From Oceanispirochaeta sp. (lineage in GTDB: Bacteria; Spirochaetota; Spirochaetia; DSM-2461): 64,000 nucleotides of DNA. The notes beneath the pieces were generated by a model, which did no database searches, was not told the DNA's origin, and saw only the letters and a list, made by a program, of their open reading frames with translations. The stretch spans positions 64,001 through 128,000 of the forward strand of contig CAXXOA010000002.1 of assembly GCA_963666275.2 (NCBI GenBank), given 5' to 3'. This document shows, piece by piece, positions 3,242-31,058 of the stretch (within the stretch, counting starts at the first letter, position 1; each line of letters opens with the position of its first letter). Position numbers and translations under genes: made by a program.

Positions 3242-4006
3242 TTATACTGTCATGATTCTTAATCCCTTCTCTTCCAGCTTCTGCAGAATAGAGGGATCAG
3301 CGCCCTGATCGGTAATCAGTAGATCTATATTCTTCACACTTCCAATCCTGGCAAAGTCGGTCCTGCCGATTTTTGTGGCGTCTGCCAGGACAATCACACG
3401 GCGGGAGCTCTCCAGGATGGCATGATAGATCCCTGTTTCCTGCATGCTGCCGCAGTAGAACTGCCCCTCCTCATCCAGACCGTTGATTCCTATAAAAGCG
3501 GTATCGAAGGAAAATCCCCGGATCATCTCTTCCGCATAGAACCCTACGCAGGAGATTGTATTTTTCCGCAGCTCCCCGCCGATCTGAATCACTGAAATGT
3601 TATTCCTTGTGTTCAGTTCATTGGCAATATTGGTGGCTTCCGAGGCAATCAGATAGCTTTTCTCGTTATCCAGCATCCGGGCCAGGCAGAAGACCGTAGA
3701 GCTGCTGTTCATAAAAATTTTCTCTCCGGGATTCATATATTTAAAGGCTTCCCTGGCAATAGCCTCTTTCTCAGCCATATGGCTGGCGATCCGGACATCA
3801 AAGGGCGCTTCATGGATCTGGCTGAAACCGGGAAGCACAGCGCCCCCATGAGTCCTGACCACCAGACCTTTCGAGGCGAGCTCATCCAGATCCCTCCGGA
3901 TCGTCATTTCCGTGACATTAAAGTCTCTGCAGAGGCTTGTTACCTCAACAGATTTTTCACTCTTCAGCAGACTGAGAATTTTTTCATGCCTCAACTGTTT
4001 CAGCAT
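3242..4006 (-). CDS. DeoR/GlpR-family transcriptional regulator
   Basis: VTEMTIRRDLDEL...RTHGGA HTH followed by the DeoR sensor domain. Start chosen at ATG 4006, which has an AAGGAGG SD. Confidence 0.92.
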   Translation of the reverse strand: MLKQLRHEKILSLLKSEKSVEVTSLCRDFNVTEMTIRRDLDELASKGLVVRTHGGAVLPGFSQIHEAPFDVRIASHMAEKEAIAREAFKYMNPGEKIFMNSSSTVFCLARMLDNEKSYLIASEATNIANELNTRNNISVIQIGGELRKNTISCVGFYAEEMIRGFSFDTAFIGINGLDEEGQFYCGSMQETGIYHAILESSRRVIVLADATKIGRTDFARIGSVKNIDLLITDQGADPSILQKLEEKGLRIMTV

Positions 4007-4073
4007 CACTGCCTCCTTGACCGTATTCCCAGTCCATTCTAACCGGACAGGGGTGTATTGAAAAGACATTATT

Positions 4074-4191
4074 TGTTTGTTTATGTTTTATTATGTTATT
4101 TATCAGTCTTTTTTTGTTTGACAACTCCTGTTTTCAGGTTTATGGTGAAACATATCTAACATTATAAAACACTTAAAAACAATTTAGAACA
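4074..4191. promoter_or_regulatory. Sigma70 promoter with phased AACA/TGTT boxes (candidate DeoR operators)
   Basis: TTGACA (4118-4123)-17 bp-TATGGT (4141-4146). AACA at 4149, 4158, 4168, 4178, 4188 and TGTT at 4074, 4084, 4094. Confidence 0.55.
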
Positions 4192-4202
4192 GAAGGTCGA
4201 AT

Positions 4203-5252
4203 ATGAAAATTCTTGTAATCGGAGACGGTTTTATTAAAACCGAAGTGTCCGTTCCCATCGTGGAGAAAATTATGGCCCCCTATGCTCCCGCAGAAATAGA
4301 GACATGTACATTTCAATGGCCCCTTTCTCCCTTTGTCAGCAATGATGAGATAAGGGAGTACGAAGGGGATGAACAGACTGTGATCGATCATATCACAGAT
4401 GCCGAACTGCTCCTTGTTCACGCTGCCCCCATAACGGAAAGAGTCCTTGAGGCGGCACCGAATCTGAAGGCTATCGGCGTGGTCCGTGGGGGCCCCACCA
4501 ATATCAATCTGGCCGCCGCTTCCAGAAGAGGAATTCCTGTATTCAACTCTCCCGGAAGGAATGCCCAGGCGGTGGTGGAATTTACCCTGGGCCTGCTGCT
4601 CAGCGAATGCCGCCATATTTCCCGGAGCCACAGGAACCTGATGGACAGGGAGTGGGCCTATGATTATTACAGCTATGAAAAATGCGGAGTCGAGCTGAAA
4701 GGCAAAACCATAGGTCTTGTAGGGTTCGGCAATATATCCTGGCGGCTGAGCCCTGTGCTGCTGGCCATGGGGATGGATGTGATCGCGTTCGATCCCTTTG
4801 TGGATAAAAAGAGAATGGCCTCCTATGAAGTGGAGAAAGTTACACTGGATGAACTGTATGCCCTGTCCGATGTGATCAGCGTTCATGCCCGGCTCACAGA
4901 GGAAACCAGGCATATGTTCAACAAAGAAGCTTTCTCAAAAATGAAGGACCGGGTGATCTTTGTGAACACCGCACGGGGAGGTCTTGTGAACTATGATGAC
5001 CTGACCGAAGCCCTGGAATCGGGAAAAGTCGGTTCTGCCGCTCTGGATGTGTTTCCCCGGGAGCCGGCCGACCTGACGGCGCCTCTCTTCGACAGAGACA
5101 ATGTCACAGTCACCCCCCACATTGCAGGAGCCACAAAGGACAGTGTGTCCTTCGGTATGACCAACCTGATGAACAGCCTCCTGGCCTACTTCAGGGAAGG
5201 ATCGCTTCAAAGCTGTATGAATCCGGAAGCCCTTGAGAAAACAAAAAGTTAA
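4203..5252 (+). CDS. D-isomer-specific 2-hydroxyacid dehydrogenase (SerA-like)
   Basis: GLVGFGNI NAD-binding motif, VNTARGG, ALDVFPREP, TPHIAG catalytic His. Confidence 0.9.
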   Translation: MKILVIGDGFIKTEVSVPIVEKIMAPYAPAEIETCTFQWPLSPFVSNDEIREYEGDEQTVIDHITDAELLLVHAAPITERVLEAAPNLKAIGVVRGGPTNINLAAASRRGIPVFNSPGRNAQAVVEFTLGLLLSECRHISRSHRNLMDREWAYDYYSYEKCGVELKGKTIGLVGFGNISWRLSPVLLAMGMDVIAFDPFVDKKRMASYEVEKVTLDELYALSDVISVHARLTEETRHMFNKEAFSKMKDRVIFVNTARGGLVNYDDLTEALESGKVGSAALDVFPREPADLTAPLFDRDNVTVTPHIAGATKDSVSFGMTNLMNSLLAYFREGSLQSCMNPEALEKTKS

Positions 5253-5294
5253 CGGTTGCGGAAAACCGTGAGATTATACTACTAGGAGAATTTT

Positions 5295-5954
5295 ATGACT
5301 TATCAGAAACAGCGGGATGATATTATAGAAACGGGAAAGCGTCTCTATACCCGAAACTATGTGGCTTCAAACGATGGGAATATCAGCATAAGACTGGATG
5401 AAAAGAGATTTCTGATCACCCCTTCAGGAGTTTCGAAAGGCTACATGGCTCCGGAGGATCTGCTTGTTGTGGATATGGAGGGGAATGTTCTCGAAGGGGA
5501 TAAAAAACCTTCTTCCGAGATGAAAATGCACAGGGAAGTGTTTACACGCCGGCCCGATGTAAACGCCATTGTCCATGCCCATCCCCAGATGGCTACAGCT
5601 TTTGCGGTGGCCCATAAGGTTTTTGACAAAATTATATTGCCCGAGATCATTTTTTCACTGGGAAAGGTATGCCTGGCTGATTACGGAACCCCCACTACGG
5701 AGCAGATCCCTCAGGCCGTGGCTAAATGCATTCAGGAGACTGATGCCCTTCTTCTGGCCAACCACGGCGCCCTGACTGCGGGCAGCGATGTGTATGACGC
5801 CTACTATAAAATGGAAACACTGGAGCATTTCGCCTGTATCTATTTCAATGTGATCCAGCTGGGCGGCGGAGTGGAACTGGACCGTAAAGAGATAGACACC
5901 CTCTATGAAATCCGGGACGGCGTCTATGGGAAGAAAACCCTGTCCCGGGTCTGA
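5295..5954 (+). CDS. Class II aldolase/adducin-family protein (FucA-like)
   Basis: DGNIS, TPSG, PSSEMKMH, VHAHP and LANHG Zn-binding motifs. Confidence 0.9.
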   Translation: MTYQKQRDDIIETGKRLYTRNYVASNDGNISIRLDEKRFLITPSGVSKGYMAPEDLLVVDMEGNVLEGDKKPSSEMKMHREVFTRRPDVNAIVHAHPQMATAFAVAHKVFDKIILPEIIFSLGKVCLADYGTPTTEQIPQAVAKCIQETDALLLANHGALTAGSDVYDAYYKMETLEHFACIYFNVIQLGGGVELDRKEIDTLYEIRDGVYGKKTLSRV

Positions 5955-5968
5955 AAGGAGATAAGAGA

Positions 5969-7522
5969 ATGTCCGGTTACTATCTGGGAGTGGACCTGGG
6001 AACCACCAATGTGAAAGCAGCTCTGTTTGACAGTCAGTACAACTGCATCGCTGAAGAGGGCTGCGAATACGATACCATCTACCCCCGCCCCGGTTGGGCT
6101 GAACAGGACCCGGAAAGCTGGTGGCTGGCGTTCTGCAGTGATATGAGAGTGTTATCAGGGAAATTTCCCGAAGAGATCGGCAGGCTCAGAGGGATTTCCA
6201 TAAGTTCCCACGCGCCCGCTGTAGTTCCTCTTGATGAAAGGGGGAAACCTCTGAGGAATGCCCTGATCTGGATGGACCGCCGGTCCGAACCTTTTATTCC
6301 GGAGATGCGGGAAACTCCCGGAGACGAAACGGTCCGGAAGATTACGGGAAACCGGATAGACCCCTACTACTCCTCTGCCAAACTCCGCTGGATGCGGCAT
6401 AACGAACCGGCCCTGTTTGCCCGGATACACTGTGTTCTTCAGGCCAACAGCTATCTGAACTACCGCCTGACCGGAGCCCAGTCCAATGACCTGGCCCATG
6501 CGGGACTGACCGGTCTCTTTGATATTGAAACCCAAAAGTGGTCCTCCCTGCTCTGCCGGGTCTGGGAGATTCCCGAGGCGATCCTCCCCCGGGTCAGCGC
6601 ATCCACAGAAATCATCGGCACTGTCTCGGACGAAGCGGCGGCAGCGGCGGGGATTCCCCGGGGCGTTCCTGTGATGGCGGGAACGGTAGATGCCTCTGCA
6701 GCTGCTCTGGAAGCAGGGGTTCTGGCTCCGGGAGAAGCCGTTGAAACGACAGGAACCTCCTCTGTCCTGATGATAGGCTGCCGGGAGATGCCCCGGACCC
6801 CTTCCCTGGTGGCACTCTACCACGCCCTGAAAGACAAAGCCCTTCTGATAGGCCCCATCAGTTCTACAGGCTCCTCCCTGAAGTGGTTCCGAGACACCCT
6901 GGGCCGGGCGGAATGCGAAGATGCGGATGACATAGGGGTAGATCCCTACACCATCATGGACAGGGAAGCCGGGTCCTGCGGCGAGGGCAGCAGCAATCTG
7001 ATTTTCCTTCCTTATATGAGCGGAGAAAGAGCTCCGCTCTGGGACACCGACGCCCGGGGCGTCTTTTTCGGACTTTCCCTGGGAACAGGAAGAGGAGAGA
7101 TGATCCGGGCGATACTGGAAGGCGGCGCCTTTGCCCTGAAACACAACCTTCTGGAGGCGGAAAAAGCGGGTCATCCCATTTCCCGCATTACCGCGGCAGG
7201 AGGAGGCGCGTCCTCGGATCTATGGCTGAAGATCAAAGCTTCCGTTCTGGGAATCCCCGTGGTAAGACTGAATAACAGCTGCAGCGGCGCTCTGGGCAAT
7301 GCCCTTGTTGCGGCCATGGGAGCAGGCGATCTTTCAGATCCCGAACCGGTCCTGGAGCGGTTTCTAAACTATGAGACAACCTTTGAACCGGAAGAGAAAC
7401 TGCAGAATCATCTGGAAGCCAAATACAGACTGTTCAGAGACCTTTATGAGCACACCCGGGAAGACTTTAAAAAAATGGCCCGCCTGGAAGCGCCGGCGGG
7501 TGTCAGCGGAAGGGTTCTATGA
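5969..7522 (+). CDS. FGGY-family carbohydrate kinase (xylulokinase-like)
   Basis: GVDLGTTNVK, ALIWMDRR, PYMSGERAPLWD, GGGASS motifs. Confidence 0.9.
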   Translation: MSGYYLGVDLGTTNVKAALFDSQYNCIAEEGCEYDTIYPRPGWAEQDPESWWLAFCSDMRVLSGKFPEEIGRLRGISISSHAPAVVPLDERGKPLRNALIWMDRRSEPFIPEMRETPGDETVRKITGNRIDPYYSSAKLRWMRHNEPALFARIHCVLQANSYLNYRLTGAQSNDLAHAGLTGLFDIETQKWSSLLCRVWEIPEAILPRVSASTEIIGTVSDEAAAAAGIPRGVPVMAGTVDASAAALEAGVLAPGEAVETTGTSSVLMIGCREMPRTPSLVALYHALKDKALLIGPISSTGSSLKWFRDTLGRAECEDADDIGVDPYTIMDREAGSCGEGSSNLIFLPYMSGERAPLWDTDARGVFFGLSLGTGRGEMIRAILEGGAFALKHNLLEAEKAGHPISRITAAGGGASSDLWLKIKASVLGIPVVRLNNSCSGALGNALVAAMGAGDLSDPEPVLERFLNYETTFEPEEKLQNHLEAKYRLFRDLYEHTREDFKKMARLEAPAGVSGRVL

Positions 7523-8982
7523 ATTATCTGTGCGCCGATGTGGGAACCTCCCGCATGAAGATTGCCCTTACCCGGCGGGACGGCCAGGTGATAGAATCGG
7601 CCTCACAGGATCTGACTGTGATCAAAGAGCAGGAAGGCTACTGCGAGATGGATATGGGAGAGGTCTGGTCAGCCTTTGCCGGACTCTGCCGGGAGCTGCA
7701 GGGGAAATGCCCGGAATCCTGGGAAGAACTCTCGGGTCTGGGCGTCACCGGACAGGGAGACGGACTCTGGCTGACCGACCCAGCCGGAACTCCTGTGAGA
7801 CCGGCGATTCTGTGGAACGACACCAGAACGAAAGAGCTGGAGAGCACCGGTCTGGATGAGTTCTGCACAGGCCGGTCGGCGAATGTGCCTTTTGCAGGAT
7901 CCTTTCATACGCTCCTTCAATGGCTTAAAATCCATGAACCGGAAAACTTCCGCCGGATCGGCCATATCTTCCACTGCAAAGACTGGATCAATTTTAATCT
8001 GACAGGGACTCCATCGGGAGATTATTCGGATGCCTCACTGGCCGGGTTCGATCTCTTTGACAAAGAGTACTGCGAAGAGATCTTTGATGAGATGGACATT
8101 GACAGCGCCGGCAGGGTTCTGCCTCCCCCGGCTCCTTCGGGCTCTGTGATTGGAACGGTCTCCTCAGAAGCATCTGACCGGACGGGCCTGCCCCGTGGCC
8201 TCCCTGTGATTGCAGGGGCTCTGGATGTCTGCGCTGTGGCCCATGGCGTGGGGGTCAGACAGCCGGGGGACACCTGTGTCATCGTGGGAACCACACTCTG
8301 TACAGAAGTGGTTGTGACGGAGGAGCAGGTGGATCTGAAACGGGGTATGGTGGCCTGTCATACAGTTCAGGACTACTACCTCAGCGTGATGCCCACCCTG
8401 AGCGGTACCACCTCCTTCGACTGGACCAAAAACCTTCTTTATCCACGGATGTCCTATAAAGAGATGGAAAAGGATATTGCGGACGTTCCGGTGGGAAGCC
8501 GGGGAATTATCTACCACCCCTTCCTTTACGGCGAGAGAGCCCCCTTCCGGAACCCCTTTGCCAGGGCCGGATTTTACGGACTGTCGGCGGTCCACGGACG
8601 CCGGGAGATGATGAGAGCGGTGTTTGAAGGAATAGCCCTCTCCCTGCGAGACTGCCTGTCCATCCTGCCCGAAGCGGGTGAAACCCTGACTGTCTGCGGC
8701 GGCGGCGCTGTGAGCGATCTTCTGTGCGGGATCATTGCGGACTGCACGGGCAGGACTGTGAAAAGGTCCCCCTGGAAGGAAGCGGGCATCAAAGGGATCG
8801 CCGATATCCTGTCGCAGGCTCTCGGCAGTGCCCCCTCACCGGAAAGTTATGCCGAATCAGAACCCACTCCGGAGGAGGTCATATTTATTGCGGATCCTGA
8901 AAAAACCAGGCTGTATGACCATCTTTATGAAGAATATGAACATCTGAAAGGGGGTATGGAGGCGTTCTGGTCGGAGAGATAA
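7519..8982 (+). CDS. FGGY-family carbohydrate kinase (L-xylulose/erythritol-kinase-like subgroup)
   Basis: DVGTS, TGQGDGLW, AILWND, DYSDAS, GERAPF motifs; ATGA overlap with the upstream kinase. Confidence 0.88.
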   Translation: MNYLCADVGTSRMKIALTRRDGQVIESASQDLTVIKEQEGYCEMDMGEVWSAFAGLCRELQGKCPESWEELSGLGVTGQGDGLWLTDPAGTPVRPAILWNDTRTKELESTGLDEFCTGRSANVPFAGSFHTLLQWLKIHEPENFRRIGHIFHCKDWINFNLTGTPSGDYSDASLAGFDLFDKEYCEEIFDEMDIDSAGRVLPPPAPSGSVIGTVSSEASDRTGLPRGLPVIAGALDVCAVAHGVGVRQPGDTCVIVGTTLCTEVVVTEEQVDLKRGMVACHTVQDYYLSVMPTLSGTTSFDWTKNLLYPRMSYKEMEKDIADVPVGSRGIIYHPFLYGERAPFRNPFARAGFYGLSAVHGRREMMRAVFEGIALSLRDCLSILPEAGETLTVCGGGAVSDLLCGIIADCTGRTVKRSPWKEAGIKGIADILSQALGSAPSPESYAESEPTPEEVIFIADPEKTRLYDHLYEEYEHLKGGMEAFWSER

Positions 8983-19933: not shown

Positions 19934-19956
19934 CAAACGCGTTTTTAGAAAACCTT

Positions 19957-19991
19957 ATACCGCCGGACGGATTTCCGGCGGTATTTTTTTT
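19957..19991 (+). terminator. Rho-independent terminator after nfnB
   Basis: 11-bp stem ATACCGCCGGA/TCCGGCGGTAT followed by a T-run. Confidence 0.85.
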
Positions 19992-20016
19992 GCTGCAACA
20001 GTCTTCTATGCTGTTT

Positions 20017-21150
20017 TCAGCCCCAGACTTCCTCAGCAATCTCTTTCACAAGGCGCATCTTTTTCCACTGATCCTCTTCGGTCAGGATATTTCCCTCTTC
20101 GGTAGAGGCAAATCCGCACTGGGGGCTCAGAGAGAGCCGTTCCAGGGGAATGTATTCTGCGGCTTCCCGTATCCGCTTTTTGATTGTCTCCTTGTCTTCC
20201 AGCTGGGGCCGTTTGCTTGTTACCAGTCCGAGTACGACCTTTTTGGAGCTGTCCAGAAAGCGGAGGGGTTCGAAGTTCCCGGACCTTTCGTCGTCAAACT
20301 CCAGAAAATAGGTTTCCACATCTTCCTTCCCGAACAGGCGCTCTCCCACAGGTTCGTACCCGCCTGAAGTGGCATAGGTGGAGTGATAATTCCCCCGGCA
20401 GACATGGGTTGAAACTTTAAGATCCTCTGGCAGATCTTTAAGGGAGTTATTATTCAGTTCCAGATAGAGTTCCTGAATCTGATCCGGGTCAAATCCCGCC
20501 CCGGCCATGAGTTTCCAGAAATCCCTGTCGCAGAGCATACCCCAGGTACAGTCATCCAGTTTGATATCCCGGCAGCCCAGGTCATAGAAAGCCAGAATCG
20601 AATCCCTGAAAGCATTGCATAGATCTTCTATAAAATCCTTCCGCTCCGGGTAGATTTCATTCACCTTATTCTCATTGGCTCCCCGTACCAGTTCCGCATA
20701 AAACTGGGAGGGAGCGGGTATGCTTAACCGTGCGCTGCCGTCCTCTCCGGCTGCCTCTTTCAGAAAGCTGTAATGCTTCAGAAAGGGATGGGCATCGGAA
20801 AAACGGATTTTCCCGTTCAACCGGGCCGAATCATCCCGGGTTTCCTCATCGTGAAACTTATAACCTTCTCCGAAATGGATATGCTCCACCCCTTCAAAGC
20901 CCCAGAAGTAGTCCAGATGCCAGTAGCTCCTCCTGAATTCTCCGTCGCTTACATTTTTATAGCCAAGCTCTTTCTGTCTGGCCACAAGCTTCAGGATCTC
21001 CTCATCTTCCACATGGGTCAGTTCCGCTTCTGTTATCTTTCCATCCGCATAATCCGCCCGGGCTCTGACCAGGGTTTCGGGGCGCAGGAAGCTCCCTACG
21101 TGATCGTAATGGGAATGGACTCCCGATCTGTCTGTATTCTCAACTGCCAT
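20017..21150 (-). CDS. Cobalamin-independent methionine synthase II family, single-barrel (YxjH-like)
   Basis: DHVGSFLRP, SDGEFRR, HVCRGN (Zn-binding HxC), LEFD, SPQCGFAS; 377 aa. Confidence 0.9.
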   Translation of the reverse strand: MAVENTDRSGVHSHYDHVGSFLRPETLVRARADYADGKITEAELTHVEDEEILKLVARQKELGYKNVSDGEFRRSYWHLDYFWGFEGVEHIHFGEGYKFHDEETRDDSARLNGKIRFSDAHPFLKHYSFLKEAAGEDGSARLSIPAPSQFYAELVRGANENKVNEIYPERKDFIEDLCNAFRDSILAFYDLGCRDIKLDDCTWGMLCDRDFWKLMAGAGFDPDQIQELYLELNNNSLKDLPEDLKVSTHVCRGNYHSTYATSGGYEPVGERLFGKEDVETYFLEFDDERSGNFEPLRFLDSSKKVVLGLVTSKRPQLEDKETIKKRIREAAEYIPLERLSLSPQCGFASTEEGNILTEEDQWKKMRLVKEIAEEVWG

Positions 21151-21340
21151 CTGCTCTCTCCTATAAAAGACAGGGGGGGTCTCTATGACTCCGCCGTCTC
21201 TGCTGTGTGATGATAAAAAAGGGAACCTCTCCTATCATTCCTTCTGGTATTTTTATTGTTCCGGTTGTCATACTCCCGGTATAGAAAAGAGCATAGAATA
21301 AATAATAAATTATTAAAAATGATAGTTTCTCATGAATTCA

Positions 21341-21353
21341 TGAATTATATTCA
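21341..21353. promoter_or_regulatory. MetR-box-like LysR site
   Basis: TGAA-TTATA-TTCA matches the TGAA-N5-TTCA MetR consensus and lies between the divergent metE-like gene and metR. Confidence 0.7.
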
Positions 21354-21358
21354 TAGAT

Positions 21359-22258
21359 ATGATTGAAAAAATCCATTTGATGATCCTTTCCGGAGTCCAC
21401 TCCACCGGAACCTTAACAGCTGCCGCCAGTGAGCTCAACCTGACCCAGTCGGCACTTACCCATGCCATAAGAAAGCTCGAAGGACAGATTGGGACTCCCA
21501 TCTGGGAAAAAGAGGGCCGGAAACTGAAACTCACCCGGAGCGGACTGCTCCTCCTCGAACTGGCCGAAACCATACTGCCCCAGATCGAACATGCCGAATC
21601 CCTTCTGAAACAGATAGCCGGGGGCAGAAGAGGAATACTCAGGATCGGCATGGAATGCCATCCCTGTTACCGATGGCTCCAGAACATACTGCCTCCCTTT
21701 CTCCAGGCATGGCCGGATGTGGAAGTGGAACTGAAACAGCAGTTCAACGGGATCAAAGCCCTGATCCGTCAGGACGTGGACATCCTGATAACACCGGATC
21801 CCTTCTTCAGTGAGAGGCTGGAATATTTTTCCGTCTTCAATTACAGGCAGGTTCTGGCAGTATCGGAGAATCATCCGCTGGCAGCAAAGGCTTTTGTACT
21901 GCCGCAGGATCTTACCGAGGAGACACTGTTCTCCTATCCGGTCAGCCTGGACAGACTGACTGTTTTTACAGATTTTCTCAAACCCGCCTCCTGCCGGCCG
22001 GCCCGTATAAAAACAGTAGAGACAACGGAGATTCTGCTTCAGATGGTCGCCGCCGGCAGGGGCGTCACCGCCCTTCCTGATTTCCTGATCGAGGAATATA
22101 AAAAAAAGCTCCCCCTCAGATCTGTAAAACTGGGAAAGACGGGAATCAGCAGGAGCATCTTCATCGGCAGGAAAATCTCGGAAAAACACCCTCTGTATCT
22201 GGATAGTTTCATTGAGATGGCAGAACAGGGTAATGAAATTGAATCAATAAGCGGTTAA
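21359..22258 (+). CDS. metR: LysR-family regulator MetR
   Basis: LTQSALTH HTH, LRIGMECHPCYRWL (MetR-like ECH.C), and divergent position from a methionine synthase gene. Confidence 0.85.
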   Translation: MIEKIHLMILSGVHSTGTLTAAASELNLTQSALTHAIRKLEGQIGTPIWEKEGRKLKLTRSGLLLLELAETILPQIEHAESLLKQIAGGRRGILRIGMECHPCYRWLQNILPPFLQAWPDVEVELKQQFNGIKALIRQDVDILITPDPFFSERLEYFSVFNYRQVLAVSENHPLAAKAFVLPQDLTEETLFSYPVSLDRLTVFTDFLKPASCRPARIKTVETTEILLQMVAAGRGVTALPDFLIEEYKKKLPLRSVKLGKTGISRSIFIGRKISEKHPLYLDSFIEMAEQGNEIESISG

Positions 22259-22564: not shown

Positions 22565-22598
22565 AATGCGTACGTATTAAAATATTCACGTACGCATT
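22565..22598. promoter_or_regulatory. Antitoxin operator-like inverted repeat
   Basis: Perfect 11-bp inverted repeat AATGCGTACGT-N12-ACGTACGCATT upstream of the phd gene; each arm contains the palindrome CGTACG. Confidence 0.65.
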
Positions 22599-22657: not shown

Positions 22658-22692
22658 TTGACAAGCAATTGGTACAGTGTTAATGTACCAAT
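22658..22692 (+). promoter_or_regulatory. GRE operon promoter with overlapping palindromic operator
   Basis: TTGACA (22658)-17 bp-TAATGT (22681); inverted repeat ATTGGTACA-N7-TGTACCAAT (22668-22692). Confidence 0.7.
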
Positions 22693-22693
22693 C

Positions 22694-23566
22694 ATGAATA
22701 TCTCCCTTTTTCAGACAGGATGGAACTACTCTCAGGACGGTCCGGGCAACAGAATGATCCTCCACTTTCAGGGGTGCAACTTCGACTGCCCCTGGTGCAG
22801 CAATCCCGAAGGCAGGAACATCAGAGGAAGTCTCTTTGTCCGGAAGGAACTTCTGACCGGAGAGGTCTGTCCCCATGGAGCCATCAGGGATGGTCAGCTG
22901 AACCGCGTTCTCTGCGGAACCTGCGTTCCAAAAGAGTGCCTGAAGGAGAACCGAAATCAGGGAATCCGCTTTTCCGCCTCCTCCGTCCCTCTGGAGGAAA
23001 TTGTCAGAACAGCGGTAGAATCCAAGCCCCTGTTCTACGACGGAGGCGGCGTTACCATCACAGGGGGAGAAGCAACCCTGCAGTTTTCCGCTCTGAAGGA
23101 GCTGCTGACGGCCCTGAAAAGAGAGGGGATTCATACCGCTCTGGAAACCAACGGGAGCCACAAAAAGCTGCCGGAGCTGTTCCCCCTGCTGGATCTTCTG
23201 ATTCTGGATATCAAACACTGGGATAGCAGGATATTTGCCGAGACTGCTGGAGCAGGACCGGGGAGTCTTATGGAAAATCTGATGATTGCCAACAGCTCCC
23301 CTACCCCCATGCTTACAAGGATTACTCTTATTCCGGGATTCAACAACGCCCCTGCAGACATTGAGGGATTCCTCAAGCTCTTCCAGTCACTGCCGAAGCC
23401 GGAGCTATTTCAACTGGAACTGCTGGCCTATCATCAGTACGGAAGAGAGAAATGGGAAGCCATAGGCGAACCCTACAGAGGACCGGATGATTCAATTTCC
23501 GATGAAGAAATGAAAGCGCATAAAACCCTTTTTAAAGAAAAAGGCATTACAATTATAAGTACCTGA
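22694..23566 (+). CDS. Glycyl-radical enzyme activating protein (radical SAM)
   Basis: QDGPGNR...QGCNFDCPWCSNPE (CxxxCxxC), GGVTITGGEA, HTALETNG, DIKH, LIPGFN, YHQYG. ATG 22694 is preferred over the TTG at 22658, which is the -35 box. Confidence 0.92.
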   Translation: MNISLFQTGWNYSQDGPGNRMILHFQGCNFDCPWCSNPEGRNIRGSLFVRKELLTGEVCPHGAIRDGQLNRVLCGTCVPKECLKENRNQGIRFSASSVPLEEIVRTAVESKPLFYDGGGVTITGGEATLQFSALKELLTALKREGIHTALETNGSHKKLPELFPLLDLLILDIKHWDSRIFAETAGAGPGSLMENLMIANSSPTPMLTRITLIPGFNNAPADIEGFLKLFQSLPKPELFQLELLAYHQYGREKWEAIGEPYRGPDDSISDEEMKAHKTLFKEKGITIIST

Positions 23567-23586
23567 AACAGGAATAGAGGTTGAAG

Positions 23587-25971
23587 ATGAAAAACTGGAA
23601 AGACATATATCCCGATGGAGCCCGGGCAGCGGCACTGGCCGATGCGGTATTCCATGAACAGAAACAGACCACCGTCCTGAACGGCTGGTTCAAAGTCCTG
23701 GAGATCCACATGAATGCCATGAAGGAGATCCCCTCTGAGACGGGAGAGGAGATGCTGGCGGCTTTGAAACTGAAGGCTGTGGCGGAAAATCTCCCCCTTG
23801 AGATAAGCGATCACGCGGTTTTTGCGGGGACCCAGAACGACGGTTTTTCGAGCAGTTACGCTCTGATTCACCCTTCCTTCAAAGTAGAGGATTTCAAGGG
23901 ATACTGTGATCCCCTGGCAGTGTTCAATGATCTGGGCGAAGAGGAAGATCTGACCCCGGAAAGGATCAACCGTGTCCGGGATTACTATGCCGGAACAGAC
24001 TATGTGAATGACCTGAATAAGGTTTATGACACCTGCCGGGAGCAGACGGAGGAAGCCCTTTTTTTTGTCGAGCAGGTGACAGGCCACCTTATTCCTGATT
24101 TTTCCCGCATCATACGGGACGGTTCTGAAGCCCTGAAATCTGACCTCCAGAATAAGGCAGAAGCCGAATCAGACGGGGAAAAAGCCGAAACCTACAGGGC
24201 CATGGAGATAACCCTGGAGGCTCTTGAAATTCTGGCTGGTCGATACGGAACAATAGCCCGGAAAAAGGCAGCGGAAAATGCGGAACGCCGGGACGAGTGG
24301 GAGCTCCTGGCAGAGACCCTGGAAAGAGTTCCTTTCCAGGGGGCATCCACCCTGTTTGAAGCGATCCAGGTCTATATACTCTGCTGGCAGGCAATGTGCC
24401 TGGAACAGAGCCCCAACCCCTATGCGTTTTCCGCTGGAAATATAGACAGGCTTTTTGAGCCCTACCGGGCGGCGGACCAGGCGGACCGTGCCGCTGCCTC
24501 CGGCCTGATCCAGGCCCTTCTGGCCTTCTACAATGTGGGAGACAGAAGCTGGGCCATATCCCAGAACATGCTCCTCAGCGGAAAGAGCTTTGTGAACAAA
24601 GACCTGACCAACACCATGACCTATGCCGTTCTGGATGCCTTTTACAGAGGCAGATACCCCCAGCCCATCCTATCGGTAAGGCTCCATGAGAAGTCTCCGG
24701 CAGCCCTTTTCCGGGAAATGGGCCGTTTTTTCTTTACCCCCGGACAGCTGACTCCTTCGCTTTTCAACGATGACTCACTGATCCCTATCCTTATAAATCA
24801 GGGAGTGGCTGCGGAAGATGCGGAAAACTACGCCGTGGCAGGCTGTCAGGAACCCCTTATAATGGGAAAAGACAACGGCAATACAACAAACAGCTGGCTG
24901 AACCTGGCCAAGGTTCTGGAGGTCACCCTCAATGAGGGACACTCTACTATCACAGGAAGAAAACTGGCCTCTTCGCCTCAGGAACTCATGGATGAAGATC
25001 TCAGCGACAGGGACCTTCTGATCCGGATCAGGGAAGTCTACTACAAACAGCTGGACAAGGTGATCGGAGAAATGACAGCCGCCGCTGACGGCTGCTCCCG
25101 GGCTCTCTCCCACCTGAGGGTTCCCTTCCTCTCTACGGCTATGGGCGGTCTCGATTCGGGGATTGATCTCAGGCATCCGGAAAAGCAGGGAACCAGCTAT
25201 AACGGCAGCGGCTGTCTGATACACGGCCTCTCTGTTCTGGCGGACTCCTTTCAGGCCATCAGCGATGTGGCGGACAATAAGTCTGCCGAAGAGTGCTCCT
25301 CCCTGCTGGAGGCCCTGAGACTGAATTTTGAAGACAGAGAAGCCCTGAGGCAGTACCTGCTGAGCAGCCCCAAATACGGCAATTACGTTGAATCCGTTGA
25401 CAATGAGGCTGTTGAGATTGTGGCCAGAGTCTCCGACAGGATCAGGGAACAGAAAAACTACCTGGGCAATCCCTTCCGCCCCGACTGGAGCTCCCCGTCT
25501 ACCCATCTGCTGTATGGTTACTGGACAGGTGCGACACCCGACGGAAGAAAAGCCAGGACCATGCTGGGATACGGCGTGGACCCCCTGTACGGAGAAGCCA
25601 CCGCCGGACTGAACTATAAGATCCTCTCCCTGCGGAAGCTGCCATATAAAAAAATGAGCGGCGGATGTGCCTGCCATCTGGGCATCAATCCCTCCTCATT
25701 TCCCGAGCTGACACTAGAGGACAAGGGTATAGCCTTTGCCAAAAAGATTCTGAATCCCCTGTTCAATCTCTCCGGAGCCAACGGAAGGATCGAACCTTTT
25801 TACCTTTATGTGAATGTAACAACCGCAGACACCCTGAGAAAAGTCCTGGATAAACCGGAAAAGTATGCCCCTTCGGGGGTATATATCATGAGAATCCACG
25901 GTACCTTTGTGAACTTTCTGGATCTATCCCCTGCCATACAGGAGGATATCATCCTGCGGCTGGATAACTAG
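23587..25971 (+). CDS. Glycyl radical enzyme (PFL superfamily), unclassified
   Basis: TGHLIPD, LFEAIQ, GNIDR, QPILSVR, Cys loop AGCQEP, PKYGN, GATPDGR, and a C-terminal Gly loop MRIHGTFVNFLDLSPAIQEDIILR; adjacent to an activase. Confidence 0.85.
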   Translation: MKNWKDIYPDGARAAALADAVFHEQKQTTVLNGWFKVLEIHMNAMKEIPSETGEEMLAALKLKAVAENLPLEISDHAVFAGTQNDGFSSSYALIHPSFKVEDFKGYCDPLAVFNDLGEEEDLTPERINRVRDYYAGTDYVNDLNKVYDTCREQTEEALFFVEQVTGHLIPDFSRIIRDGSEALKSDLQNKAEAESDGEKAETYRAMEITLEALEILAGRYGTIARKKAAENAERRDEWELLAETLERVPFQGASTLFEAIQVYILCWQAMCLEQSPNPYAFSAGNIDRLFEPYRAADQADRAAASGLIQALLAFYNVGDRSWAISQNMLLSGKSFVNKDLTNTMTYAVLDAFYRGRYPQPILSVRLHEKSPAALFREMGRFFFTPGQLTPSLFNDDSLIPILINQGVAAEDAENYAVAGCQEPLIMGKDNGNTTNSWLNLAKVLEVTLNEGHSTITGRKLASSPQELMDEDLSDRDLLIRIREVYYKQLDKVIGEMTAAADGCSRALSHLRVPFLSTAMGGLDSGIDLRHPEKQGTSYNGSGCLIHGLSVLADSFQAISDVADNKSAEECSSLLEALRLNFEDREALRQYLLSSPKYGNYVESVDNEAVEIVARVSDRIREQKNYLGNPFRPDWSSPSTHLLYGYWTGATPDGRKARTMLGYGVDPLYGEATAGLNYKILSLRKLPYKKMSGGCACHLGINPSSFPELTLEDKGIAFAKKILNPLFNLSGANGRIEPFYLYVNVTTADTLRKVLDKPEKYAPSGVYIMRIHGTFVNFLDLSPAIQEDIILRLDN

Positions 25972-25980
25972 AGGTTTGCA

Positions 25981-27036
25981 GTGCCCCTGAAAAACCTGAA
26001 TGACAACTCACTCTATCAGGAAATACTTCTGGATTTCTTCAGAAAGGTCTATGAGGGAGAAATTCAGCCGGATCACCAGTTTCCTCCGGAAAGGAAGCAG
26101 GCAGAGGAGCTTTCCGTCAGCCGGGGAACCGTCCGGAAGGCCCGCCAGCTTCTGGAGGAGGCCGGATACATATCCAACACTCAGGGCCGGGGAGCCGTCT
26201 ATACCCCTCTGAAAGGAAGAGCTCCCGGAAAAATGGAAATCATTGCCGTTGTGGTCCCGGTTCATAATCCTTTTTTTATGGCCTACTACAGAGCCTTTGA
26301 AAGGGAAGCTGAGAAATGCGGGATCCTGGTGGTGATTAAACAGCTGGACCTTGAAAATGCCGCAGGGCTGAAACATGTTCTGTTTTCACTCTTTCTCAAG
26401 GGAATCAGGGATATTGTTTTCTGGCCCTATGACATCCAGCTGGAGGACAGGTATATCGAACGGCTGAGCGGCCTGGGTATGAATTTTCTCTTCTTTGATG
26501 CGGTCAGGAATGACAGATTCTGCGACTATGTGAGCGTTGATAACCGGGATGCCCTGAACAGGCTGTACCAGGCCCTGAAGACCAGAGGGGCAGAACGGAT
26601 TGCCTATCTGGGATGGGACAATCAGATCCTCTCAAGCAACAGAGAGAGAGAAAAATGCTTCCGGAATCTGATGTCCTCAAAAGATATTATCCTAAGACTG
26701 CCCTGGAATCAGGAAACCATCCCGTCAGAGAGTCTGAGCGATCTTGTCCCCCTTCCGGCCTGTATCAGAGAAGACAAAATCGGAGGATTTCTCTGCGGAA
26801 ACGGCCATATCGGCATTCTCCTTAAAAAGTATCTGCGGGAGAACGGATTTGATCGCATCCCTGTTGCCACTGTGGACAACTACCCGGCCTCGGGGGATCT
26901 GGATATAACGGTCTATGAACAGCCCTTCCAGAAAATGGGAGAGTTTTCCTTTCGCAGGCTGAAGGACAGAAGCGAATCTCCTGAACAGTGGATTTCAAAA
27001 ACGACCTTTCTGAAGGGAACTCTTATCGAGAGGTAA
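25981..27036 (+). CDS. GntR wHTH plus LacI-type sensor domain regulator (AraR-like)
   Basis: FPPERKQAEELSVSRGTVRKA...QGRG wHTH, followed by NPFF and DYVSVDN periplasmic-binding-like domain. Confidence 0.88.
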   Translation: MPLKNLNDNSLYQEILLDFFRKVYEGEIQPDHQFPPERKQAEELSVSRGTVRKARQLLEEAGYISNTQGRGAVYTPLKGRAPGKMEIIAVVVPVHNPFFMAYYRAFEREAEKCGILVVIKQLDLENAAGLKHVLFSLFLKGIRDIVFWPYDIQLEDRYIERLSGLGMNFLFFDAVRNDRFCDYVSVDNRDALNRLYQALKTRGAERIAYLGWDNQILSSNREREKCFRNLMSSKDIILRLPWNQETIPSESLSDLVPLPACIREDKIGGFLCGNGHIGILLKKYLRENGFDRIPVATVDNYPASGDLDITVYEQPFQKMGEFSFRRLKDRSESPEQWISKTTFLKGTLIER

Positions 27037-27077
27037 AAAAAATGCTGCCCCGTTACCGGAGCAGCTACATTTAATGC

Positions 27078-28010
27078 TTATTTGGCAGAGTATTTGCCAC
27101 TCATCTGATCGGAAATAACACAGAACTGATCAATTTCCATCTTCTGAGATTCGGTCATCTGTCTCAGACGGGCATCCTGTCTCCGGCTGATAAGGTTGGT
27201 AAATACACCTTCCTTCATCAGGGAGTAACGGGCATTGGCCGGATAGAACTGGCACTCAATGGTGGAGGCATTTCCGAGATAGCTCTGAAGAACTTCAGCC
27301 TCATCACCCATTTCCTTCCAGCTGCTGCACAGTTTATGGTACAGATCCGTGTGGAAGTTGGTCATAATACCGCTGTATCCGGAATAGCCGGCTTTCAGGC
27401 TGTACAGAAGAGTCGCCGCATTGGCATTGAAAAGTTTCAGGCTGGAACCTTTTACAATTTCCGCTCTTTCCGTAATCATTTCAGGAGAACAGCAGGTGTC
27501 CTTAACAAACTCAAAACGTCCTGTCTTCACAAGTTCTTTCATCACTTCTGCGGAAAGGACCCGTTTGTAGGGATAGGGGCATTCATAAAATCCCAGGGGG
27601 ATATCCGAAGGAAGCAGTTTAATCAGCTTTTCCAGATTACTCAGCCAGATATCATCCCCTTCCCAGGGCGCGGCAAGACGGTTGGAAACCAGAACAAGAG
27701 CATCCGCTCCCGCTTCGGCCATATCATTCAGGTCCTGAGCCTGCTCTTCAATCACATCGGAAACATGACCTGAAGCCATCACAGGGTACCGGCCGGCAGT
27801 GATTTCCACGGTTTTACGGCACAGTTCTTTCCTCTCATTCCGGGAAAGTTCAAACATGGCACTGGACTGACAGACTGCGAACAGACCGTCAATTCCTCTA
27901 CCGATGTACCACTCAATAAGTCTTTCCAGAGCGGCGTAGTCGATGGACAGATCTGTATTGAAAGGGGTTAACATTGTCGGATAAACCCCGCTTACAATTT
28001 CTTTTCTCAT
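27078..28010 (-). CDS. Dihydrodipicolinate synthase/N-acetylneuraminate lyase-family class I aldolase
   Basis: GVYPTMLTPF, YECPYP, VKDT (Schiff-base Lys); CQSS in place of GTTGE. Confidence 0.88.
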   Translation of the reverse strand: MRKEIVSGVYPTMLTPFNTDLSIDYAALERLIEWYIGRGIDGLFAVCQSSAMFELSRNERKELCRKTVEITAGRYPVMASGHVSDVIEEQAQDLNDMAEAGADALVLVSNRLAAPWEGDDIWLSNLEKLIKLLPSDIPLGFYECPYPYKRVLSAEVMKELVKTGRFEFVKDTCCSPEMITERAEIVKGSSLKLFNANAATLLYSLKAGYSGYSGIMTNFHTDLYHKLCSSWKEMGDEAEVLQSYLGNASTIECQFYPANARYSLMKEGVFTNLISRRQDARLRQMTESQKMEIDQFCVISDQMSGKYSAK

Positions 28011-28046
28011 TCTATTTAATTCCTCTAAATATATAATCCGGAAGTC

Positions 28047-29342
28047 CTACATCCCCAGAAGTCTGGGAAGGAACAGAACAACACCCGGTACATAGGTAAC
28101 AAAAAACAGTACCCCGAAAAGCACAAGGAGCATGGGCAGGATCTCTTTAATAACCTCTTTCAGAGGAGTTTTGGAGATACCCGAAACAACAAAAAGGAGC
28201 ATACCGAAGGGCGGCGTCGAAAGACCGATCATCATGTTCAGAGTGATCATAACGCCGAAGTGGACAAGGTCGATCCCCAGGGCATTGATCAGCGGAAGAA
28301 CAATGGGGATGAAAACCAGAGTGATACACATGGTGTCAATGAACATACCCAGAATGATAAATACAATGTTGATCAGAAGCAGAAGAACATACTTGTTGTT
28401 TGTTACTGTCAGCAGCCAGCCGGCCACAGCGTCGGGAATGTGTTCAATCGCAACGATATAGGAAAAGGCATAGGCTGTTCCTACAAGAAGCGAAAGAGTT
28501 CCCGTTGTTTTTACTGTGTTGAGAACAACAGTGCCCAGCTGCTTGATTCCCATAGCCTTGTAGACAAAAAAGGAAACAAGGATGGCATAAAGGGCAGCCA
28601 GAGCTCCCGCCTCGGTGGGGGTTACGATTCCCGTATAGATACCGCCAAGGAGAACAATCACAGAAAGGAGAGCCGGCATGGCTTTTCCCGTAATGGACAT
28701 GGTTTCTTTGAAAGAGAGTTTTTCACCTCTGGGGTAGTTCCGGATTTTGGCAATCACCGCAATGTAGACCATAAGGGCGGCGCCCACAAGAAGTCCCGGG
28801 ATCATACCACCGATAAAAAGAGCCCCGATAGAAGCTCCCGAAAGCATGGAGTAGAAGATCATGGGAATACTGGGAGGAAAGATCGGGCCGATTGTCGCGG
28901 AAGCGGCGGTTACGGCACTGCTGAATCCTCTTTCGTATCCATTGTCGTTCATGGCTTTGATTTCCATCATTCCCAGTCCGGAAGCATCTGCCAGAGCAGA
29001 ACCGGTCATACCTGAAAAGATAATGGACGCTACAACATTCACATGCCCCAGGGCACCCCTTCTCCGGCCGACGACTGCGTTGGCAAATTTGAAGATCATA
29101 TCGGTCACTCTACCTGTATTCATGACTTCAGCCATAAAAACAAAAAGAGGCACAGCGATAAGAACAAATTTGGAGTTCATGTTGGTCAGGAACTGTGTGG
29201 CCGCCATTCCCATATCTGCCGCAGGACCGGTAGCCAGGGCAAAGTAGAAAAGAGACGCCATAAGCATACCCGGAGCGATAGGAATCCGGATGAGAAAAAT
29301 CAGGACAAAACAGATGAGAAAAACTAACAAGGGCAGACTCAT
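28047..29342 (-). CDS. dctM: TRAP transporter large permease
   Basis: AVPLF, SGMTGSALADA, PIFPPSIP, TPTEA and TPPFG motifs. Confidence 0.95.
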   Translation of the reverse strand: MSLPLLVFLICFVLIFLIRIPIAPGMLMASLFYFALATGPAADMGMAATQFLTNMNSKFVLIAVPLFVFMAEVMNTGRVTDMIFKFANAVVGRRRGALGHVNVVASIIFSGMTGSALADASGLGMMEIKAMNDNGYERGFSSAVTAASATIGPIFPPSIPMIFYSMLSGASIGALFIGGMIPGLLVGAALMVYIAVIAKIRNYPRGEKLSFKETMSITGKAMPALLSVIVLLGGIYTGIVTPTEAGALAALYAILVSFFVYKAMGIKQLGTVVLNTVKTTGTLSLLVGTAYAFSYIVAIEHIPDAVAGWLLTVTNNKYVLLLLINIVFIILGMFIDTMCITLVFIPIVLPLINALGIDLVHFGVMITLNMMIGLSTPPFGMLLFVVSGISKTPLKEVIKEILPMLLVLFGVLFFVTYVPGVVLFLPRLLGM

Positions 29343-29833
29343 ATTTTATACTCTCCTGATTTTAAAAGTTTCAGATCTTTGACAACATCTATGGTGAACC
29401 GACCAATCATAAAAGCCAGAAAAATGACAAAGGGGAAGAAAACTATATCCATCGGAATTTTCAGAACATTCGATTTTTTATAGTTCATGAAGTGAACATA
29501 ATTCCAAGACGGAATCAGTCCGATAATAAAGGAAACAATCAGCAGAATATTTCCTGAGATTCTCATCCAGAGTTGAGCTAAAGGACCCACCGAATCGTAT
29601 AACATGGTGAACATAACATGGGAATCATCTCTTTTGGCAAAAATTCCCCCCAGCAGGGAGGTCCAGATAAAACACATAAGAGAGAGTTCCAGGGTCCATG
29701 TGAGGGGTCTGAAAAAGTAACGGAATACAATCCCCAGTATAAAAACAAGGAATAAAACAGAAAAAGCGGTAAAGGGAATATAGACCTCTACCGTATCAAC
29801 TAGGAATTTACCTATTTTTTGAATTTTCTTCAT
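29339..29833 (-). CDS. dctQ: TRAP transporter small permease
   Basis: About 4 TM segments; RY..PLTWTLEL and SH motifs; lies between dctP and dctM. Confidence 0.9.
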   Translation of the reverse strand: MKKIQKIGKFLVDTVEVYIPFTAFSVLFLVFILGIVFRYFFRPLTWTLELSLMCFIWTSLLGGIFAKRDDSHVMFTMLYDSVGPLAQLWMRISGNILLIVSFIIGLIPSWNYVHFMNYKKSNVLKIPMDIVFFPFVIFLAFMIGRFTIDVVKDLKLLKSGEYKI

Positions 29834-29898
29834 ATATAAAGCCTTCTATCAATAGTTAATCCCGTCCGGAGCTTCTCCGGACAGGACCTTATCTACTA

Positions 29899-30927
29899 TT
29901 AATCTACCAGAGCCTGAACTTCTGCATACAGATCCATATCCCAGTCTTTTGAGATATCTTTGCTGTCATTCAGATAGGAGTTCTGAGCGTATTCGGCAAA
30001 TGCCTGAACATCCGGATCATCGATAATAGTCATACCTTCGCCTCTGAAGAAATCCAGGATTCCCGCTTCGGTTTCAAGGTTGGTTGTATCACAGTATTCA
30101 CGAGCTACATCTACAGCCTGAAGAACCCATTCTTTCTGCTGATCAGTAAAGGACTGCCATTTCTTTTCGTTGATTGTAGGCCAGGTGGAATCAACAACAT
30201 GGTTGGTCAGTACGATGTATTTTGTTACTTCGTAGAATTTGGCGTTTTTGTCGGTTGCCAGGGGGTTATCCTGACCTTCAACAGCGCCGGTTTTCAGTCC
30301 CATGTAAACTTCATTGAAAGACATGGGAGTGGGGTTGCCGCCGAGAGCTTTTCCAAGGGCAATCCATGAAGGAGATCCGGGAACTCTCAGTTTAACACCG
30401 TCCATATCGGCAGGAGTTCTGACAGGACCCACTTTGTCAACAAGGTTCAGCTGTCTGGTACCGAGGTAGTAAGCTCCGAGAGGTCTGATCCCCTGAGAAT
30501 CCACAACATCCTGGAAAACCTTCTGTCCGATCTCGCCATTGAAAACTTTGGTCATGTGCTCATAACCCTGAAAGGTATAAACAGCAGAGAACATGGAAAG
30601 GTAGGGAACAAACTCAGCCAGCCAGGGAGCACTGGTGTAAACCATATCAACAGTTCCCTGACGAACGGCAGCCTGCTCACCTTCCTGTGAATAGAGCTGA
30701 CCGGAGTGATAAACATTCACGATCATGGATCCGTCGGAGATTTTCTCCAGTTCTTCTTTGAATACAGTCATAGCTTCAGTATGGGCATCGCCTGGAACAC
30801 TGACTGAAGAGAAGTTGATTTCAATAGGTTCGGATGAGGCAGCCGCTGTCTGGCTTTCATCCTTCTGTTTACAGCCGCCGAAAACAATCAGGCCTGCAAG
30901 CAGCAGAAAAAATACAGTCTTTTTCAT
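29899..30927 (-). CDS. dctP: TRAP substrate-binding lipoprotein (DctP/SiaP-like)
   Basis: Lipobox-like FGGC, GVKLRVP (carboxylate-binding Arg), PTPMSFNEVY, GQDNP. Confidence 0.92.
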   Translation of the reverse strand: MKKTVFFLLLAGLIVFGGCKQKDESQTAAASSEPIEINFSSVSVPGDAHTEAMTVFKEELEKISDGSMIVNVYHSGQLYSQEGEQAAVRQGTVDMVYTSAPWLAEFVPYLSMFSAVYTFQGYEHMTKVFNGEIGQKVFQDVVDSQGIRPLGAYYLGTRQLNLVDKVGPVRTPADMDGVKLRVPGSPSWIALGKALGGNPTPMSFNEVYMGLKTGAVEGQDNPLATDKNAKFYEVTKYIVLTNHVVDSTWPTINEKKWQSFTDQQKEWVLQAVDVAREYCDTTNLETEAGILDFFRGEGMTIIDDPDVQAFAEYAQNSYLNDSKDISKDWDMDLYAEVQALVD

Positions 30928-30985
30928 CGATTAAGACTCCTTTTGTCTTATTTGGAATTTTCTGATCTCTTTGATCACGTCACCT

Positions 30986-31058
30986 ATAGTAATATGACTT
31001 ATGTCACATGTCAACTTATAAATATAACAGTTGACATATGTCGCAGGCAGGGTAAAAT
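30986..31058. promoter_or_regulatory. Back-to-back promoters with TGAC-N4-GTC palindromes (candidate FadR operators)
   Basis: TGACTTATGTCA (30995) and TGACATATGTCG (31032); minus strand TTGACA (31014)-17 bp-TACTAT; plus strand TTGACA (31031)-16 bp-TAAAAT. Confidence 0.6.

Follow-up and report, generated by a model that had tools for sequence, protein, structure and literature searches.

A distinct group of glycyl radical enzymes with sugar-related gene neighborhoods, represented by an activase-enzyme-regulator unit of Oceanispirochaeta sp.

Organization of the locus

A stretch of 64,000 nucleotides of Oceanispirochaeta sp. (assembly GCA_963666275.2, contig CAXXOA010000002.1, positions 64,001 to 128,000 of the forward strand; hereafter the window) was analyzed around a glycyl radical enzyme (GRE) encoded between a radical-SAM activase and a GntR-LacI hybrid regulator. 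The three genes are co-oriented and, judging from their arrangement, look like one transcription unit; the coordinates of all features are collected in Table 1. By sequence comparison the GRE is a member of a distinct group outside the characterized GRE classes, and we tentatively place it in the anaerobic breakdown of a sugar derivative. A first-pass annotation had described a PFL-superfamily protein with the loops GCQE and RIHGT, a single cysteine in AGCQEP, a GntR/LacI-hybrid regulator downstream, and no transporter, dehydrogenase or shell gene in the operon, and all of these points were confirmed for the three-gene unit. The shell-profile scan, which covered 12 window proteins and was not extended to related loci, gave no shell gene.

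Table 1. Features of the locus in window coordinates
Feature	Position	Strand	Description
Possible partner block	3242..8982		DeoR regulator (-); 2-hydroxyacid dehydrogenase, class II aldolase, two FGGY kinases (+)
Candidate sigma-70-type promoter	22658..22686	+	TTGACA 22658-22663, 17 nt, TG-n-TAATGT (-10 at 22681-22686)
Candidate palindromic operator	22668..22692		ATTGGTAY-N9-RTACCAAT; perfect 9-bp inverted repeat
Activase	22694..23566	+	290 aa; radical-SAM motif; four-Cys insert
GRE	23587..25971	+	794 aa; PF02901; C420/E422, G772, H167
GntR-LacI hybrid regulator	25981..27036	+	GntR N-terminus and Peripla_BP_3 domain
Hairpin	27044..27065		Between regulator and convergent dihydrodipicolinate synthase (DHDPS)-family gene; listed as terminator-like on the - strand

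Loop motifs and conservation of the enzyme family

The Cys loop of the GRE reads A-G-C420-Q-E422-P (Cys codon at 24844-24846) and the Gly loop M-R-I-H-G772-T-F (Gly codon at 25900-25902). When compared with the published GRE fingerprint, RVxG[FWY]x6-8[FL]x4Qx2[IV]x2R (2026 review PMC13450708), the Gly loop was found to deviate only by V to I and by aromatic to T, with the His at a free position. The loops had been called non-canonical, and this holds for the altered Gly loop; the remaining fingerprint positions, however, fit, and the protein retains the CXE motif shared by eliminases and isomerases. The protein matched PF02901 with 319 bits, and PF01228 was not reported for it.

A protein search gave 3420 matches at E<=1e-100 among 8000 candidates scored, of which the best 120 (53-93% identity) were aligned with the query, and both GCQE and RIHGTF were invariant in 121 of the 121 proteins. 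The GRE was further compared with that of L001, which of the relatives sharing the kinase-less layout is the closest (dN 0.13, dS ~2.8). The resulting dN/dS was ~0.05 for the GRE, a rough value because dS is near saturation; the activase and the regulator gave 0.12 and 0.10, respectively. On these rates the GRE is under purifying selection. Gene decay, which the first-pass annotation had coupled to a lack of conservation of the two motifs, was accordingly examined and rejected.

A profile search over 50%-identity representatives returned a handful of full-length members of the family, several sisters scoring ~430-590 bits and, at 278 bits, one more protein with GCQE; the other GREs scored <=349 bits. 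The sisters combine GCQE with RIHGQ, RVHGM, RVHGY or RVHGF, and among 106 full-length representatives GCQE and RxHG occurred together in seven and never apart (7/7 versus 0/99 others). In a FastTree phylogeny of 77 rows, built without bootstrap and with the first 55 qualifying representatives, the 26 GCQE rows were separated from the remaining rows by a branch of support 100. The phylogeny that had been proposed as a check thus sets the GCQE/RxHG enzymes apart from the YbiW-like and PflD-like proteins of this genome, through which alone characterized enzymes are present in the tree. Since the pairing has a single origin on the tree, it does not provide independent evidence of a contact between the Gln and the His. 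This large branch is found in Bacillota, Bacteroidota and Spirochaetota, and cultured gut isolates are among its carriers.

Comparison with characterized glycyl radical enzymes

The GRE scored below the cut-off of every curated NCBIfam GRE model (62-263 bits versus 678-1150), the best being TIGR01774 with 263 against 678. The glycerol/propanediol dehydratase, HypD, HpfG/HpsG, CutC, IAD and HPAD models, with TIGR01774 among them, all remained below their cut-offs, the other scores being 62-188 against 1000-1150; PRK09983 gave 188 bits against 1109, and TIGR01255 gave 74 against 994, the Cys-Cys pair of pyruvate/ketobutyrate formate-lyase not being present in GCQE. The YbiW/PflD structures 8id7, 8id0 and 8yjo matched the GRE with 134-167 bits, and the best PDB sequence match was glycerol dehydratase with 206 bits. 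The AlphaFold model of the GRE (pLDDT 89, pTM 0.93) matched the listed solved GREs with TM 0.77-0.84 at 18-24% identity and no clear winner, and G772 and C420 aligned with the radical and Cys loops of 1r8w. With its predicted 10-stranded barrel fold, both loops and an adjacent CX3CX2C activase, the protein is on this model a member of the PFL-like superfamily, and the earlier proposal of a distinct GRE class within it agrees with the scores, the low structural identity and the separate branch.

Could it still be a divergent member of a characterized class, such as PFL, glycerol/propanediol dehydratase or choline lyase? The names in the source records, which include pyruvate formate-lyase and choline trimethylamine-lyase, and the best PDB match would speak for this. 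The enzyme has a single Cys, however, and of the glycerol dehydratase pocket just His164 and Glu435 are retained. The genome holds six GREs by motif, including a YbiW-like protein and a separate PFL of the CC/RVSGYAV type. Assignment to PFL or another named class was rejected on the single Cys, the distance from the cut-offs and this separate PFL, and we regard it as highly improbable.

The dehydratases are nevertheless the best matches (B12-independent glycerol dehydratase, 1r8w, and GRE propanediol dehydratase, 5i2g and 9rco; TM 0.82-0.84, identity 23-24%), with equivalents of the catalytic Cys, Glu and His164 retained in the GRE. They differ in context, the GRE unit having no alcohol/aldehyde dehydrogenase or shell genes. 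YbiW and PflD, the anhydroglycolysis isomerases, are a second point of comparison, and according to Ma et al. 2024 (via PMC13450708) they isomerize, with opening of the ring, 1,5-anhydrohexitol 6-phosphates made by the phosphotransferase system (PTS). They share with the GRE the PFL-like fold, the single Cys with CXE, the His at the His164 position and, in the case of YbiW, a Thr at Cys+14 and a Ser on strand 8, as well as a sugar-catabolic context, a fructose-6-phosphate aldolase (FSA) gene neighboring the GRE in 6 of 165 loci. On the other hand, the GRE is 21-23% identical to them, carries GCQE/RIHGT instead of GC[IV]E/RVAGY, has a cap-helix segment ~11 residues shorter and is partnered by an FGGY kinase and a mannose-6-phosphate (M6P)-isomerase-like protein. 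The review states that CXE is retained in all C-O eliminases and isomerases (PMC13450708). By analogy, the GRE would work like the YbiW/PflD sugar isomerases without being one of them, as a variant of a known enzyme kind. The aminoacyl radical enzymes (PMC11528403) are likewise GRE homologues known by an altered radical-loop fingerprint; there Gly is replaced by Ala, Ser or Thr, whereas here G772 is retained and the flanking residues differ.

No study of a RIHG/GCQE GRE or of a GRE paired with an FGGY kinase was found in the literature searched, from which subscription papers, figures and supplements were mostly absent, and neither kind of enzyme is described in the accessible portions of PMC13450708 and PMC11528403. 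It is likely that the family appears unnamed in a published network or tree, and a recent characterization may have escaped the search.

The predicted active-site pocket

In the alignment, C433, E435 and H164 of glycerol dehydratase correspond to C420, E422 and H167 of the GRE, and H167 and E422 were invariant in 121 of 121 proteins. H281, S282, Y339, D447 and Y640, which we take to line the glycerol dehydratase pocket, are replaced by Y/F279, A280, W322, T434 and S635. The Thr at Cys+14 and the Ser or Ala on strand 8 fit YbiW and not glycerol dehydratase, and Cys+12 is Arg in YbiW and the RVHG sisters but Asn in the GRE family. R320, W322, H546, H640, H697, D633 and a second Cys, C543, were also invariant in the 121 rows, C543 being missing in the RVHGY sisters. 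The invariant W322 together with F/Y279 could stack a sugar ring. His164 of glycerol dehydratase is the proposed acid (PMC13450708).

The cap helix between strands 2 and 3 is called conserved, and sometimes substrate-binding, in the review (PMC13450708). In the GRE this segment is ~11 residues shorter than in 1r8w, 9rco, 2f3o, 8yjo and 5i2a; D287-G332 comprises 46 residues in 121/121 proteins, as compared to a mode of 61 (44/98) in other representatives, and just a 3-residue helix is left in the AlphaFold model. The wider and more aromatic pocket predicted in this way would suit a sugar ring.

Gene neighborhood of related loci

To describe the context of the enzyme, 165 loci were compiled, namely the best 80 of 500 confirmed stretches from a species-genome scan, 5 from relatives and the best 80 of 113 from metagenomes. 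There were 118 RIHGT loci, and 82 of them, with 3 kb on both sides, were counted as well-flanked. Within 3 kb an FGGY kinase was present in 77 of these 82 (69 sedoheptulokinase-like, 9 XylB-like), an activase in 81, an M6P-isomerase-like cupin in 33 and a GntR-LacI gene in 19. The name sedoheptulokinase is an automatic label, the database giving "sedoheptulokinase family". A XylB-like kinase was found in 10/11 well-flanked RIHGQ loci, seven loci being cut and set aside. The operon had been taken as self-contained; for the pathway this is not supported, given the near-constant kinase. The M6P-isomerase-like gene occurred in 54/165 loci, and because it is spread over both the RIHGT and the RIHGQ groups, the combination of kinase and isomerase looks ancestral.

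The rarer neighbors in the 165 loci were glycoside hydrolase family 32 (GH32; 6), FSA (6), rhamnose isomerase (6), psicose 3-epimerase (4, above the cut-off in L133 and L161), GH38 (4), 1-phosphofructokinase-like kinases (4, adjoining RVHGY/RIHGF sisters) and GatZ (1), besides a 6-phospho-3-hexuloisomerase and a mannitol-dehydrogenase-family gene. The GH32 clusters lie in the Bacteroidota loci L002, L176 and L184, with a separate pfkB kinase in L176. These genes point to fructose or ketohexose metabolism, the loci being interrelated and the counts without background control. Sedoheptulokinase-like genes without a GCQE GRE adjoin psicose-epimerase-family genes in L096 and L225, a pairing that suggests free-ketose kinases. 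Taken together, the kinase and the fructose-type neighbors support the sugar-related role proposed at first.

Several further arrangements were observed among these loci. A protein of 665-696 aa recurs by the GRE cassette (L176:4910-6973, L184:6044-8131, L002:13725-15773 and L015:7234-9228), with a weak GH32 N-terminal match in 3/4 and the database label "GH32-like hypothetical" for the recurring Bacteroidota neighbor; it may release the substrate. In the metagenome RIHGQ subfamily (L135-L166) an M6P-isomerase-like gene, an ABC transporter and a XylB-like kinase accompany the GRE, and the activase is encoded on the other strand in a tail-to-tail orientation. In L123 and L128-L130 a DeoR gene accompanies the 1-phosphofructokinase-like kinase next to the RVHGY/RIHGF sisters, and L123 additionally carries a RuBisCO-like protein, a thiamine diphosphate enzyme pair, a SIS isomerase, a lyxose isomerase and a class II fructose-bisphosphate aldolase. 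A second, unrelated GRE-activase pair (L080:4572-7834) lies just 5' of a RIHGT cassette.

Promoter, operator and activase

The candidate operator overlaps the promoter spacer, the -10 element and the start site, and the promoter arrangement ends 7 nt 5' of the activase ATG, with no Shine-Dalgarno sequence. The same promoter layout was found in 6 same-genus loci, and in Firmicutes relatives such as L024, TTGACA-17-TATAAT occupies the corresponding register and a ribosome-binding site comes after it. A consensus promoter scanner did not list the promoter, whose -10 matches 3/6. Transcription is predicted to begin at about the activase ATG, which makes a leaderless mRNA probable. The unit had earlier been started at TTG 22658; since this TTG opens the -35-like box and the activase genes of same-genus relatives begin at the counterpart of ATG 22694, that ATG is most likely the activase start.

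Among the 76 loci with a locatable activase start, the palindrome (<=2 mismatches) was present upstream of the activase in 17/19 with a GntR-LacI gene and in 1/57 without it. This co-occurrence would tie the regulator to the operon, and the GntR-LacI protein is likely its repressor. One exact site was found in this genome and one in each of 10 others, so no wider regulon emerged from these 11 genomes; one-mismatch sites stayed at the control level, and neither a transporter nor a kinase came to light in this way. A second perfect inverted repeat (22565-22598; 11-bp arms, 12-nt gap) lies ~100 bp upstream of the activase; it is a single copy in the genome and is not in the short intergenic region of L001.

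The activase contains the radical-SAM motif C28-x3-C32-x2-C35 and an insert with C59, C74, C77 and C82. The first-pass annotation had noted a dedicated activase with a degenerate ferredoxin-like insert; activase and insert stood, but the insert is not randomly degenerate, as C-x14-C-x2-C-x4-C was retained in 11/11 long-insert activases displayed, of 32 with the insert. From this pattern it could hold one auxiliary [4Fe-4S] cluster. The insert is absent from 64/96 counted activases (L001-L202) and present in 32, within one enzyme group, which offers a natural test of the role of the putative auxiliary cluster.

The kinase-less form in this genome

The GRE was present in 8 of 61 searched genomes. 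Five same-genus genomes carry activase, GRE, regulator and kinase, and a sixth relative has GRE, regulator and kinase on a short contig; in L089-L093 the kinase follows the regulator, at the site of the hairpin in the window. No orthologue of this cassette kinase was found in this genome (97% complete) or in G004 (95%), both of which hold just paralogues of 32-36% identity. Relocation of the kinase was considered and rejected, because the two sedoheptulokinase-like kinases of this genome are 32-36% identical paralogues with their own branch in a provisional quick tree. As the family is nearly always accompanied by a kinase and 6/7 relatives carrying the GRE retain it, the three-gene form is most simply a derived loss.

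Such a loss could mean that the operon is a relic with no working pathway, and the opposite partial loss in the same-genus genome G006, where the kinase is kept and the other three genes are gone at the matching site, demonstrates that the cassette does break up. Against this, none of the three open reading frames is disrupted, the operator is intact, no catalytic residue is missing, and the low dN/dS values of all three genes, at near-saturated dS, were obtained with a relative which is itself kinase-less. We consider a relic very unlikely.

In L001, which matches G004, 86 bp separate an upstream block of DeoR, dehydrogenase, aldolase and two kinases from the activase; the counterpart of this block in the window is parted from the activase by 13.7 kb of modules placed elsewhere in relatives. 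Its second kinase occurs in 2/61 genomes, exactly the two without the cassette kinase. The block also possesses a regulator of its own as well as a terminator-like hairpin. The block may possibly replace the lost kinase, and shared ancestry of these two related genomes would fit equally.

The intervening region (9075-22258) contains FAD-dependent oxidoreductase-like and flavin oxidoreductase-like genes, a tripartite transporter, LacI, a short-chain dehydrogenase/reductase (SDR), an NfnAB-like pair and a short MetE-like gene with LysR, modules that are scattered in relatives. Downstream of the unit lie the convergent DHDPS-family lyase gene and a tripartite ATP-independent periplasmic (TRAP) transporter, which with a divergent GntR-FCD regulator make up a separate sugar-acid-type cluster (27078-31818) in synteny with L001. 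At L095:12525-14909 and L096:1-5821 (G000:C1 ~190-204 kb) a YbiW-like GRE (922 bits to 8id7) is divergent from DeoR, LacI, an ABC transporter, SDR, a Zn-dehydrogenase, D-psicose 3-epimerase and a sedoheptulokinase-like kinase; a PflD-like GRE lies at a distance of 5 kb. As no PTS gene was seen in the two loci, the arrangement is possibly a non-PTS form of anhydroglycolysis.

Proposed pathway and its alternatives

The reading that we tentatively prefer, at somewhat less than an even chance, is the anaerobic breakdown of a fructose- or mannose-configured sugar derivative of six-carbon size, in which the GRE would cleave a C-O bond of the free compound and a kinase would act afterwards. The GntR-LacI protein would act on the palindrome and so keep the promoter repressed, up to the binding of a sugar effector. 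The activase would place a radical on Gly772, from which it would pass to Cys420; the thiyl radical would take hydrogen from a carbinol carbon while Glu422 deprotonates that hydroxyl, and His167 would protonate the oxygen on the next carbon, so that the C-O bond breaks. In this way either an anhydro-sugar would have its ring opened or a polyol would lose water, with a deoxy-ketose as the product. The FGGY kinase would phosphorylate this product, which an isomerase or aldolase would then take up; in the present genome, phosphorylation would depend on a kinase encoded outside the unit. A free sugar is placed first because of the short cap segment, the conservation of the GRE after kinase loss and the interchangeable kinases, those beside the GRE coming from two lineages (sedoheptulokinase-like and XylB-like).

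Several observations weigh against this reading. The pocket residues were assigned by alignment only, and the short cap segment is not unique, 29/98 other uncharacterized representatives having 45-52 residues. Neither a kinase nor a transporter nor an aldolase is encoded in the window's own unit, and the two sedoheptulokinase-like kinases of the genome are distant from the cassette kinase. The commonest partner after the kinase, the M6P-isomerase-like protein, is the main unexplained piece: such an enzyme cannot act on a 1-deoxy-ketose, and a simple non-PTS copy of anhydroglycolysis therefore does not account for the module. FSA is near the GRE in just the six loci given above, and the fructose-type neighbors, the isomerase apart, are each rare, come from related genomes and are without background control. 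Finally, the invariant R320 and several His could bind a phosphate, favoring a kinase-first order.

In that order the C-O chemistry would be the same, the FGGY kinase with or without the isomerase making a sugar or polyol phosphate for the GRE, as for YbiW/PflD. The only characterized sugar GREs do act on phosphorylated substrates (PMC13450708). R320, H546, H640 and H697 are invariant, the sister groups have Arg at Cys+12 like YbiW, and a kinase and a phosphosugar isomerase make a natural feeder pair. YbiW presumably binds the phosphate through the cap segment and the Arg at Cys+12, whereas the GRE family lacks most of that segment and has Asn at Cys+12; moreover, two genomes have lost the operon kinase while the GRE is still conserved. 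We rate phosphorylation before the GRE step as somewhat less probable than the preferred order.

The C-O cleavage of a free sugar has also to be set against other radical chemistry on a sugar-like compound, such as C-N cleavage of an amino- or imino-sugar, radical ring opening (aldose-to-ketose or of a glycoside), or a carbon-skeleton rearrangement that starts from a branched sugar. The long separate branch, the joint occurrence of the Cys-loop Gln and the Gly-loop His, and the invariant D633 and C543 are consistent with it; a product keeping C1-O/C2=O would account for the M6P-isomerase-like partner, and an apiosidase-like gene occurs in L186/L187 besides the RuBisCO-like gene in L123. However, CXE and His167 make up the ordinary eliminase/isomerase set, the Gln/His pairing arose once on the tree, C543 is absent from the RVHGY sisters, and the branched-sugar neighbors are single cases, which leaves such chemistry unlikely. 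A further reading, which we hold to be quite unlikely, would make the GCQE/RxHG branch a new functional GRE class on free sugars or glycoside-type compounds, with a product keeping C1-O/C2=O. Here the reduced cap helix and the Gln/His pair would serve, for instance, the radical opening of a C- or O-glycoside ring or a skeletal rearrangement that brings a branched sugar into the fructose series, and the kinase and the M6P-isomerase-like partner would feed the product to glycolysis. If true, this would amount to a widespread anaerobic sugar pathway with chemistry undescribed for GREs.

Significance

Each GRE branch that was functionally assigned has exposed an overlooked anaerobic pathway, and whole GRE clades await validation according to the review (PMC13450708). 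The same source ties activase specificity to the Gly-loop sequence, a question on which the altered Gly loop of this family bears. The operator/regulator pair and the interchangeable kinases provide direct handles on the substrate.

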